UHGV virus genome: UHGV-0235625 | Length of the DNA stretch: 6,500 bases | DNA from: a virus | Direction: 5' to 3' (one strand) | In this document: in pieces, positions 2,105-4,001 of the stretch | Layout of the letters: each line of letters begins with the position of its first letter | Numbering within the stretch: position 1 is the first letter of the stretch | Notes under the pieces: model-generated | The model's input: only the letters and a program-made list of their open reading frames with translations | Database searches by the model: none | Told to the model about the DNA's origin: nothing | Position numbers and translations under genes: made by a program

Positions 2105-2288
2105 CGCCTCGCCGGCGGGGCGTCTGCCGACGGCTGGTGTATATGGGCGGTCGGTTCTAACCGACCTCACCGAGCGCTCGCTTAAGGCGAGAATCGCTCT
2201 CCAACGGAATACTCGTTAGCTCGCTTCGCTCGTTTGTCCGGCAAGCCGGGCGTATATAGGGGGCAAACACGCCCCCTATTACCCCGTG
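2105..2288. other. GC-rich multi-hairpin intergenic element between the VP2-side genes and the Rep start. Candidate complementary-strand origin / primosome (ssi) recognition structure, or packaging or regulatory structure.
   Basis: There is an abrupt switch from an AT-rich genome to a ~180-nt block with roughly 60-65% GC by eye. Stems readable directly in the sequence: ggtcggtt(2149-2156)/aaccgacc(2159-2166); gagcg-ctcgc(2172-2181)/gcgag..cgctc(2187-2199); ccggc(2238-2242)/gccgg(2245-2249); atagggggc(2256-2264)/gccccctat(2271-2279) with loop aaacac; and the palindrome cgccggcg (2110-2117). There is no ORF on either strand. Confidence 0.5.
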
Positions 2289-2885: not shown

Positions 2886-4001
2886 TTAATCATAATAATC
2901 ATAATCTTCGAATGTAGTCTTACCATCCTTAGAACGAGTAGTCATCTTAGAATGAATCTTACCAGACTTAGGAGTAGCAGGATTAGCAAACGGAACAAAA
3001 CCAGACAGAGTTCGAAGAACTTCATTAATATGATTCATAGTACGATCAAGATCATCCCAATTCATATCCTGAGACAAGTCAAACAATATACGAGATTGCT
3101 CAGCATTCGCCTTGAGACCAAGATCAGTGAAATAAGAAGCCATAGCCTGGTTTCTCTTTTCCTCAGATTTCATAAGAGGCAGCTTAGCCATCAATTCTAT
3201 GGTAGCATTCTTTAATTGTTCCTGAGAAACCTTTAACTGTCCTTGAAGAACTTTCAACTTTCCATGCTCAATAAACGAATCGAGAGCAACACGAACATGA
3301 CGCTCCCAAACACGATCATCAACATCAGCAGCTTGTGAAATAAGCAGATCTATCTCAGAATCAATCTTAGAAATATTAGCATCAATTTGCCGAACCATAG
3401 CACGAGCTTGAGAAGACTGTGAATCATTCAACTGAATCTTACTATCATTAACCAAAATAGAAGAATGAATAGTATCAAGCTGGCCTTGATTAAACGCATC
3501 ACGAAACGAAGCATCAGACTTTAGAATATCGTTATTATATTGCTGGCCTGTCGTTTCTGCAGTAGTCTTAGAAACCTGTGCAGACAAAGCAGTATCAGCA
3601 AGAGCCTGCGAAGCAACAGAACCAAGAGGTTTATAACGATTCCAGGCCGAAGTATCAGCAACAGGACCAGATGGAGTCATACCACCTTGTGCAGTTACTG
3701 ATTGACCTAAAGACTGACCGTTCGTATACATCAAATCAGGATTCATTCCGGCAGCTTTCAAACGAGCAATATTAGCAGAAGGAGTGTTATAGGCATTATT
3801 AGCTTCCCATAATTTATAATTCCAATCATTTTGCGCTTCACGCTCGGAAGTCTGCCAACGGCGGGCCTTCTCAGCTTCTTCTCGCGCTGCTGCGAGCTGT
3901 TTTTTGACAGTTTTATTCTGAGAAATAGCACCAAATAAATTAGAGATACCGGAGAGTGCTCCACCTATGAGAGCACTACCGGCACCTGAAAAAAAACCCA
4001 T
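2886..4001 (-). CDS. VP2: Minor capsid / DNA pilot protein VP2 (Microviridae), 371 aa
   Basis: ATG at complement(3999..4001), overlapping the upstream stop (TAATG). It has a Gly/Ala-rich N-terminus, MGFFSGAGSALIGGALSGISNLFGAI, and the Microviridae VP2 signature NTPSANIARLKAAGMNPDLMY. The central region is coiled-coil-like and Q/S-rich. Confidence 0.85.
   Translation of the reverse strand: MGFFSGAGSALIGGALSGISNLFGAISQNKTVKKQLAAAREEAEKARRWQTSEREAQNDWNYKLWEANNAYNTPSANIARLKAAGMNPDLMYTNGQSLGQSVTAQGGMTPSGPVADTSAWNRYKPLGSVASQALADTALSAQVSKTTAETTGQQYNNDILKSDASFRDAFNQGQLDTIHSSILVNDSKIQLNDSQSSQARAMVRQIDANISKIDSEIDLLISQAADVDDRVWERHVRVALDSFIEHGKLKVLQGQLKVSQEQLKNATIELMAKLPLMKSEEKRNQAMASYFTDLGLKANAEQSRILFDLSQDMNWDDLDRTMNHINEVLRTLSGFVPFANPATPKSGKIHSKMTTRSKDGKTTFEDYDYYD

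Follow-up and report, generated by a model that had tools for sequence, protein, structure and literature searches.

How a gut microvirus marks the place at which its single-stranded genome is first copied is the question raised by one block of DNA in UHGV virus genome UHGV-0235625. To our knowledge the complementary-strand origin has been established by experiment only for a few E. coli microviruses (phiX174, G4, St-1 and alpha3). The 6,500-nucleotide stretch analysed here, referred to as the window, is approximately the complete genome of an uncultivated gut microvirus, and every one of its genes lies on the minus strand. The strand packaged by Microviridae is the mRNA-sense one, which makes the minus strand of the window the virion strand; the features below are given on that strand unless stated otherwise. 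The first-pass annotation of the window had pointed to a GC-rich cluster of hairpins (2105-2288, 184 nt) in the only large intergenic region, just upstream of the gene for the replication initiator, Rep. The block does lie in the longest non-coding stretch (2070-2538), 35 nt from the Rep ATG at 2069. We describe it as an array of six to seven short hairpins on the virion (coding) strand whose structure is under selection, whose small loops are specific to that strand and whose core motif is common to the origin region of phiX174. We give about an even chance to the reading, drawn from these sequence features, that the block is the complementary-strand (minus-strand) origin, a single-strand initiation site (ssi), or the major part of one.

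The block is a folded GC island kept by compensatory changes

The contrast in composition noted in the first-pass annotation is real, the GC content being 62.7% in 2101-2250 and 38.6% in the whole window. When 2095-2300 was folded as single-stranded DNA, the virion strand reached -47.6 kcal/mol, compared with -34.6 ± 3.3 kcal/mol for dinucleotide shuffles (z = -3.99; 0 of 200 shuffles as good). The plus strand gave z = -3.75 and a fold with RNA parameters gave z = -4.65. The block therefore beats shuffled sequence on either strand, and the two strands are equally stable, so that fold energy cannot pick the strand.

Two close relatives, L152 (93.4% identical to the window over 3.9 kb) and L252 (92.6% over 4.8 kb), both retain the block. 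The three genomes differ at 10 block positions. Seven of these belong to stems, and at every one pairing is preserved, by three compensatory double changes and one C-G to T.G replacement. In hairpin H2 the stem CCGG/CCGG becomes CCAG/CTGG in L152. In H5 the outer stem GAGCG/CGCTC becomes GAACG/CGTTC (the outer G-C pair is replaced by A-T), and the inner stem shows T-A to G-C and C-G to T.G in the comparison of L252 and L152. The C-G to T.G change stands alone in L252 and is joined by the G-C change in L152; this T.G wobble forms a pair on the coding strand only. The other three variable positions fall in one loop, one bulge and one linker. The 470-nt intergenic region (2070-2538) is 98% conserved between the window and these two relatives, compared with 92-93% genome-wide, and is thus more constrained than the genes. 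In the lineage of the window, then, the block is neither absent nor variable among near-identical genomes, the outcome that the first-pass annotation had named as refuting its reading, and its structure, preserved through compensatory changes, is under selection.

About four hairpins had been expected. We count six to seven (H1-H7), the additional ones being at 2238-2249, 2223-2229, 2203-2217 and 2103-2141. H1, the hairpin farthest from rep, is seen both as an inverted repeat and in the folds and has the 9-bp stem ATAGGGGGC/GCCCCCTAT recognized earlier (2256-2264/2271-2279), with a 6-nt loop. Its flanks, GGTAATAGG...CCTATATACRCC, and the base of its stem are invariant in the window, L152, L237, SH-CHD12 and Dulem 258, and its apex varies among these five genomes, with GTA, GTAA and GTGTTT loops. 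H2 (2238-2249) reads CCGG-CTTG-CCGG and, through the double change above, CCAG-CTTG-CTGG in L152. It is followed by AGCGAAGCG (2222-2230), which holds a d(GCGAAGC) mini-hairpin (2223-2229) in a conserved context, and by the weak H4, AACG-AGTATTC-CGTT (2203-2217), which appears in both DNA and RNA folds and, being invariant in the three close relatives, carries no covariation information. The bulged stem reported in the first-pass annotation was found at 2172-2199 as the two-part H5, GAGCG-ATT-CTCGC/GCGAG-CGCTC with loop CTTAA, which folds on both strands. The inverted repeat GGTCGGTT/AACCGACC of H6 is likewise present (2149-2156/2159-2166) and folds; the 8-bp stem ascribed to it is in practice one of 7 bp with a 4-nt loop, GGTCGGT-TAGA-ACCGACC (2149-2166), and the only change in H6 in L152 and L252 is in the loop. 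H7 (2103-2141), detected in the plus-strand fold and in a scan for mini-hairpins, is imperfect and holds the mini-hairpin CGTC-GGCA-GACG (2121-2132); a conserved single-stranded box, GACCGCCCATATACACCAGCC, precedes it.

Two direct repeats, each just 3' of a hairpin, are embedded in this array. Copy 1 (2136-2150) reads GGTGTATATGGGCGG on the plus strand and CCGCCCATATACACC on the coding strand, and copy 2 (2249-2263) reads GGCGTATATAGGGGG on the plus strand; their coding-strand consensus is CC(C/T)ATATAC(A/G)CC. Between the block and the Rep start codon lies an A-rich leader (2070-2104) that is unpaired in DNA and RNA folds.

None of the block hairpins is followed by a T-run, and the terminator scan found 0 terminator-like sites in 1900-2900, in agreement with the earlier remark that these are not classic terminators; an intrinsic (rho-independent) terminator, a GC stem with a T/U run, was accordingly rejected. 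The block has no match in Rfam even at E ≤ 10, no tRNA or tmRNA according to ARAGORN and no copy elsewhere in the window genome. Two small open reading frames (ORFs) overlapping it (2043-2219 on the plus strand, 2182-2322 on the minus strand) were rejected as genes because indels in the relatives are not multiples of three and substitutions track base-pairing, not codons.

Outside the block, a hairpin GCAAGTTT-CCC-AAACTTGC (2379-2397 and 2340-2362 in the window) shows compensatory changes and is followed by a T-rich run. Its counterparts are CGAGTTT/AAACTCG in SH-CHD12 and CGAAGTT/AACTTCG in the sister clade described below. The structural-gene transcript may end here, though the terminator scan made no call there.

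Hairpins are exchanged as modules in more distant microviruses

The block can be aligned with that of a group comprising SH-CHD12, Dulem virus 258 and L237, whose Reps are about 50% identical to that of the window. In the alignment A3, which takes in the window/L152 and SH-CHD12/L237/Dulem 258 groups, three elements are invariant: GGTAATAGG..CCTATATAC.CC around H1, in which CCTATATAC.CC belongs to repeat copy 2; the 13-mer CGAGCGAAGCGAG around AGCGAAGCG; and AACGACCGC. The leader keeps the pattern AAAC.ACTTAA.A.TA. Between these elements whole hairpins are swapped in one slot (CGGC-GAA-GCCG, CGGAC-AAA-GTCCG and CGACC-GATA-GGTCG), and a 32-nt indel gives the window an extra hairpin module, H5 being without a counterpart in the SH-CHD12 group.

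A sister clade with 72-78% Rep identity was represented by 27 IMG/VR and about 55 metagenome loci. It has a GC-rich block in the matching position, about 170-180 nt before the Rep ATG, with a different primary sequence. The consensus structure from 43 distinct full-length versions has 37 pairs, with 99.9% of cells paired; 11 pairs are changed on both sides, compared with 5.5 ± 1.1 in shuffles (0 of 500 as many) and 0-2 in slid controls. Sister-clade hairpins behave as gain/loss modules. Nested deletions on the side of Rep were seen in L021, L171, L168, L191, L178, L194, L182, L179 and L025, and other variants (L006, L010 and L017, for example) have an extra CCCC-TTTA-GGGG hairpin.

Bajarodmic virus 1030 (L001) is barely related to the window virus, with Rep identity of 39% over 66 aa only and a capsid that tblastn does not detect. 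Its best nucleotide match to the window, 41 nt at 88%, is nonetheless inside the block (2112-2152), and it has an H1-type terminal hairpin, repeats of AGCGAAGCG and a counterpart of the H7 mini-hairpin, GTCC-GCA-GGAC. The 41-nt identity could reflect either a shared host-factor constraint or a module moving between microviruses. About 10 mini-hairpins lie in its region 2060-2450, as does a tandemly duplicated unit of about 60 nt (GGAAGCGAGC(A/G)AAGCGAGCAGTAGCG..). The hairpin array is therefore modular, its hairpin number is not fixed across clades, and the surrounding hairpins look partly redundant.

In a clade at 36-43% Rep identity (L238-L251), a textbook intrinsic terminator, AGCCGGGTGTCCCCCGGCTTTT, directly follows the upstream gene, about 170-190 nt before Rep, and is itself followed by an origin-like motif. 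Some members carry a single CCGC-GAA-GCGG or CCGC-GGA-GCGG mini-hairpin just before rep.

Short block sequences were also used as probes of viral contigs. The exact H1 sequence gave 0 matches, GGCTGGTGTNTATGGGCGG one chance match in a coding region and GACCGCNNATANACACC 75 chance matches. CGAGCGAAGCGAGC gave more than 120 matches, nearly all in unrelated GC-rich phages and one in a microvirus. All these probes were too short or too unspecific for collecting homologues. The earlier suggestion that the block might be a captured host fragment found no support: it has no match in 72,556 plasmids, and among 50,697 phage records it matches another microvirus only (bacterial chromosomes were not scanned with the block).

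A 9-mer common to the block and the phiX174 origin region

The element that recurs across these groups is AGCGWAGCG (A-GCGWAGC-G), a motif that was defined before phiX174 was looked at. The window has one copy (2222-2230, minus strand) where 0.04 are expected. It is found in four groups (that of the window, the SH-CHD12 group, the 72-78% clade and the very distant bajarodmic virus 1030), in every case upstream of rep and on the coding strand. In the 72-78% clade it occupies the apical loop of a 190-nt hairpin and is retained by every deletion variant.

The phiX174 genome also has a single copy, identical to the AGCGAAGCG of the window, on the virion strand at 2357-2365 (0.10 expected on both strands of the whole genome), and this copy falls in the 110-nt F-G intergenic region. 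That region contains the hairpin recognized by the primosome 'ahead of gene G' (PMC9865509; PMC5778457). When the blocks were compared with the phiX174 F-G region, the best same-strand 16-mer match was to one phiX174 site, GACCAAGCGAAGCGCGGTAGG, for the block of every clade. The match is 15/16 for L006, with 0 of 300 shuffles as good, and the hairpin loop ACCAAGCGTAGCG of L008 aligns with ACCAAGCGAAGCG of phiX174. G4 has no AGCGWAGCG. The hexamer AAGCGG, a presumed consensus of PriA sites that we did not find confirmed in the literature, was not used as evidence.

Mini-hairpin loops of the blocks strongly favour the virion strand

Strand preference is seen in the loops. Blocks from six genomes in four clades contain 28 hairpins of the form C-GNA-G or C-GNNA-G on the coding strand and 2 on the complement, compared with 51 and 53 outside the blocks of the same genomes (Fisher p = 5e-6). 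With stems of at least 3 bp the counts in the blocks are 15 and 0. Their density is 22.8 per kb in the blocks and 1.4 per kb elsewhere. The k-mers are biased in the same direction (AGCG 43 against CGCT 3; AGCGA 21 against 0), these figures not being independent of the loop counts. The loops are mainly triloops (GAA, GTA, GCA, GGA) together with GNNA tetraloops, often non-GNRA, which fits the d(GCGNAGC)/d(GCGNNAGC) class of DNA mini-hairpins rather than RNA GNRA loops. According to a 2026 review, mini-hairpins of this class are found at the primase start sites of G4 (GCGAAAGC) and of St-1 and alpha3 (GCGTTAGC), as well as in RSF1010 ssiA and the N4 virion RNA polymerase promoters, and they bind poorly to SSB, the protein that binds single-stranded DNA (PMC13037366).

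A model for complementary-strand initiation

These features suggest how the block might work. When the single-stranded genome enters the cell, host SSB would coat the AT-rich DNA, and the GC-rich hairpins would stay folded and free of SSB, above all the very stable C-GNA-G and C-GNNA-G mini-hairpins (GCGAAGC at 2223-2229 and CGTCGGCAGACG at 2121-2132). The structured island, together with the single-stranded boxes CGAGCGAAGCGAG and GACCGCCCATATACACCAGCC, could then be recognized by the host priming machinery, which might be a PriA-type primosome of the kind used by phiX174 or, in the manner of G4, DnaG acting directly. A host RNA primer would be laid and the genome converted to the double-stranded replicative form. 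The core of the site would be AGCGWAGCG, with the remaining hairpins as redundant scaffolding. Binding of the block by host priming proteins is proposed here by analogy. The phiX174 motif makes us lean towards a PriA-type site, and the lack of CTG in the block argues against a DnaG site of the E. coli type.

Several observations weigh against the block being an initiation site, or against the whole array being needed for it. In the sister clade the GC block is no more stable than shuffles (z = -0.09), whereas an adjacent 190-nt imperfect hairpin (L008 2425-2625), directly upstream of the block and without an equivalent in the window, is strikingly so (z = -7.9) and bears AGCGTAGCG in its apical loop (..CCAAGCGTAGCGAC.. 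in L008, with TATCTTTG in the descending arm); what is essential may thus be this motif and not the GC-rich array. Hairpins on the side of Rep are lost to varying extents in 8-9 of 58 unique sister-clade variants (about 15%). The clade at 36-43% Rep identity has just one or two small GC hairpins before rep and no AGCGWAGCG. In the window itself, the 16-mer match to the phiX174 site is modest (13/16, with 14 of 300 shuffles as good), AGCGAAGCG may lie outside the minimal PriA site of phiX174, and the mini-hairpin class accounts for two of the six to seven hairpins, GCGAAGC and CGTCGGCAGACG, both on the virion strand. CTG, the start site of E. coli DnaG, occurs nowhere on the coding strand of 2070-2300, although the preference of the host primase may differ. 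Finally, on the mRNA-sense strand the block separates the Rep ATG from any possible promoter and so is probably transcribed too, and strand bias alone cannot tell a DNA function from an RNA function.

The ssi proposal of the first-pass annotation thus stands in part, having come through each of the computational tests applied. In its favour are the stability relative to shuffles, the compensatory changes, the virion-strand loops, the core shared with phiX174 and the presence elsewhere of a candidate nick site, to which we return below; the sister-clade deletions and the almost certain inclusion of the block in the Rep mRNA leader, where it may act as RNA, tell against it. A broader version, which we regard as possible and on balance doubtful, sees in the block a modular landing pad of SSB-resistant mini-hairpins around an AGCGWAGCG core, the core being common to the phiX174 primosome assembly region and gut microviruses of Bacteroidota. 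It would be one ancient PriA-type recognition element underlying minus-strand initiation in distant Microviridae subfamilies and host phyla, with accessory hairpins gained, lost and exchanged between unrelated microviruses such as bajarodmic virus 1030.

Alternative explanations

The main rival to an initiation site operates at the level of RNA. The block is probably part of the Rep mRNA leader, and as a structured 5' leader it could protect the message from 5' decay, pause or attenuate structural-gene transcription, or tune Rep translation; we consider it rather unlikely that this is what the structure is for. It does sit on the sense strand, with the rest of the intergenic region on one side and the Rep ATG on the other, its RNA fold (z = -4.65) leaves the A-rich translation-initiation region free, and T.G/G.U wobbles are tolerated on the sense strand. 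In addition, the sister clade has a perfect Bacteroides-type -7 box (TATCTTTG, matching the consensus TAnnTTTG) about 40 nt upstream of the block, which would make the block a 5' untranslated region there. The intergenic region of the window, however, has no TAnnTTTG box, and the block has neither an Rfam family at E ≤ 10 nor terminator-like hairpins with U-runs. Its hairpins are clear of the start-codon region, with no apparent mechanism of occlusion. The loops that dominate, GNA triloops and non-GNRA GNNA loops, are special in DNA and not in RNA, and the core motif is common to a phiX174 region that works as single-stranded DNA. An RNA role and a DNA role may coexist, with the loop types favouring DNA. 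It is less likely that the block serves the virus's own Rep or its packaging, as a site of rolling-circle termination and re-initiation, of rep autoregulation or of encapsidation marking. Its position, abutting rep and about 230 nt downstream of the nick candidate, would suit such a cis element, as would the CC(C/T)ATATAC(A/G)CC copies, which resemble TATATAGCAC of the candidate origin and, loosely, CTATAGACCAC of the phiX174 30-mer, and the invariance of CCTATATAC.CC between two groups whose Reps have diverged so far (about 50% identity). Nevertheless, these repeats are short and only weakly like the origin, a likeness noted post hoc. Packaging in Microviridae is tied to Rep-driven synthesis, and we know of no separate packaging signal. 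Bajarodmic virus 1030, moreover, has block sequences despite a barely related Rep, which points to a host-factor target.

The mobility of the hairpins raises another possibility, that they expand neutrally by slippage, template switching or recombination in the sole tolerant non-coding region, selection only keeping the pairing harmless. Hairpins are indeed gained and lost among close relatives (the CCCC-TTTA-GGGG insertion, the nested deletions, the 32-nt indel and the L001 tandem duplication), clades differ in hairpin number from 1-2 to more than 10, and an analogy is offered by the repetitive hairpin-forming elements outlined for AT-rich mitochondrial genomes in PMC2800124. Neutral expansion would be expected to be symmetrical between strands, yet the loops are distributed 28:2. 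It also fits poorly with the invariance of CGAGCGAAGCGAG and the other single-stranded boxes across about 50% Rep divergence, with the conservation among the three close relatives (98% intergenic, 92-93% genome-wide) and with the lack of block copies elsewhere in the genome, and we judge it improbable. Most improbable is a phage attachment site (attP) for lysogenic integration, such as a dif-like XerC/D substrate in folded form. Bacteroidetes microvirus proviruses, XerCD-dependent integration of gokushoviruses and the folded single-stranded attP of CTX phage supply the analogy, and the block has TGTATAT-like AT cores with GC-rich arms. On the other hand, no 28-bp dif-like site was recognized, and when one genome from each of 185,579 species was scanned with a Rep profile, the sole match was a free 6,689-bp contig that is not integrated. 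Over-length contigs are either concatemer-like or chimeras; their junctions fall at or within rep, outside the block.

Three such contigs deserve description. In L023 (1-3000), L207 (3337-6336 of ODYN01000239.1, 67.8 kb) and L199, the microvirus stops at or inside rep and unrelated phage-like DNA follows, including endolysin-like ORFs, a YMDD reverse-transcriptase-like ORF and a tail-fibre-like ORF. They are probably assembly chimeras.

A candidate viral-strand origin and the genome context

A better candidate than the block for the viral-strand origin and its Rep nick site, TAACTTGATCTATATAGCACAATTGACACA, is present at 2512-2541 (read from 2541 to 2512). It has the phiX-like form AACTTGAT...TGACACA. 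Compared with the origin 30-mer of phiX174 and G4, whose location in gene A we verified, it has AACTTGAT exactly and agrees at 20 of 30 positions, a score that is not significant alone, being reached by 24 of 300 shuffles. The assignment is based instead on conservation across clades: of 132 related loci, 102 have AACTYGAT-N8-16-TGACAC, among them loci of the clade with 36-43% Rep identity. The layout is like that of phiX174, a nick core and a distal box, both conserved, on either side of a variable AT-rich spacer, and the site lies at the base of a predicted hairpin. From these sequence patterns 2512-2541 is likely to be the Rep nick site. The block was itself considered as a nick site of the phiX174 type and rejected, the best match to the core CAACTTG^ATATTAATAAC... 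being at 2512-2541, outside it; that the GC block is the Rep nick site is thus unlikely. Two direct copies of CATTG(A/C)(C/T)(T/C)AACTTG were observed on the coding strand at 2500-2513 and 2535-2548, 35 nt apart. The nick-like core AACTTG thus occurs twice, the second copy, CAACTTG, having exactly the phiX174 form.

The remaining genes, all on the minus strand, encode the major capsid protein (6495-4315, Pfam Phage_F), a 105-aa ORF, a pilot-like ORF of 371 aa (4001-2886) and an 88-aa ORF (2805-2539). Rep (675-2069, 464 aa; Pfam PF23343 REP_ORF2-G2P, E = 4.6e-18) is directly downstream of the block, which confirms the placement given in the first-pass annotation. The nearest GenBank records are the human- and lemur-gut microviruses SH-CHD12 and Dulem virus 258, with 75-80% nucleotide identity in the capsid and pilot genes. 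The host phylum is probably Bacteroidota. In the sister clade, L209 (NZ_QTJV01000041.1, also L025) is a complete 6,689-bp microvirus genome on its own contig in an assembly of Chitinophaga silvisoli (Bacteroidota). It is not integrated and is either a hint of the host or contamination.

Implications and comparison with known origins

Hairpin clusters as minus-strand origins are a known kind of element, and similar proposals have been made for other uncultivated microviruses (PMC9865509). What appear to be new for this lineage are the architecture of the GC-island array, the strong mini-hairpin signature of one strand and the unique motif that also stands in the phiX174 origin region; in the literature searched we found no paper describing any of the three. 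The block provides a concrete target for mutation in AGCGAAGCG and the flanking mini-hairpins. The loop variants GCAAAGC (of GCGAAGC) and CGTCAGCAGACG (of CGTCGGCAGACG) would lose the sheared G.A loops and leave the stems intact. The block also provides a signature that can be searched for, namely virion-strand C-GNA-G/C-GNNA-G loops together with AGCGWAGCG. If the proposal is true, minus-strand origins could be annotated across Microviridae, there would be a hint at the host factor used in Bacteroidota, and the construction of replicating vectors or the rebooting of synthetic gut microviruses would be helped. The nick candidate at 2512-2541 would complete the cis-acting replication map.

The closest published proposals concern reekeekee- and roodoodooviruses, in which conserved intergenic hairpins near Rep, with compensatory substitutions, were put forward as primosome sites and remain unproven (PMC9865509). 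The block resembles them in being adjacent to Rep and in its compensatory changes. They differ in having one or two hairpins, and no GC island, loop bias or phiX-shared motif was reported for them (PMC9865509).

The single-strand origins (sso) of rolling-circle plasmids and the M13/f1 minus origin are folded stretches of about 160 nt, specific for strand and orientation, that prime the lagging strand as single-stranded DNA and are host-restricted (PMC5703833). The block, in contrast, consists of an array of short hairpins in place of a single long palindrome. TAGCG is missing from both its strands, and no promoter-like duplex was recognized, with no sigma-70-like site in the block and no TAnnTTTG in the region; on these grounds an RNA polymerase-dependent origin of the ssoA or M13 type was rejected. 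The sister-clade 190-nt hairpin, with ..GCGTAGCGAC in its apical loop, does recall the layout of ssoA, whose CS-6 loop consensus we take to be TAGCGT/A.

With the origins of G4, St-1 and alpha3 the block has in common an intergenic cluster of virion-strand hairpins. The 136-nt F-G region of G4, folded as a control, gave z = -4.7, compared with -4.0 for the block, so that a stable virion-strand cluster is present in both, that of the block with compensatory changes. G4 hairpin I (GGACGGCGAAAGCCGCCGTCC), which lies under the annotated primer (3970-3997), has a virion-strand C-GAAA-G mini-hairpin, a loop class enriched in the gut blocks. The two differ in that G4 has three hairpins with a CTG (3996-3998) immediately 3' of hairpin I; CTG is absent from the window block, which shows no sequence similarity to the G4, St-1 and alpha3 origins, just chance matches of 9-11 nt.

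The phiX174 F-G region is 110 nt long with one dominant AT-rich hairpin, in contrast to the 184 nt and six to seven GC-rich hairpins of the window, and the two have no overall sequence similarity. The phiX174 site lies between the capsid and spike genes, far from the viral-strand origin, whereas the block abuts rep and is about 230 nt from the nick candidate. The hosts differ as well, E. coli in one case and probably Bacteroidota in the other. Primosome assembly sites of the phiX174 type are hairpin-forming, fork-like single-stranded DNA (PMC5778457), and the folds show the block to be non-coding virion-strand DNA of this description. In both viruses such a hairpin-forming stretch stands directly upstream of a gene, and in both genomes AGCGAAGCG is present as a unique copy on the virion strand.

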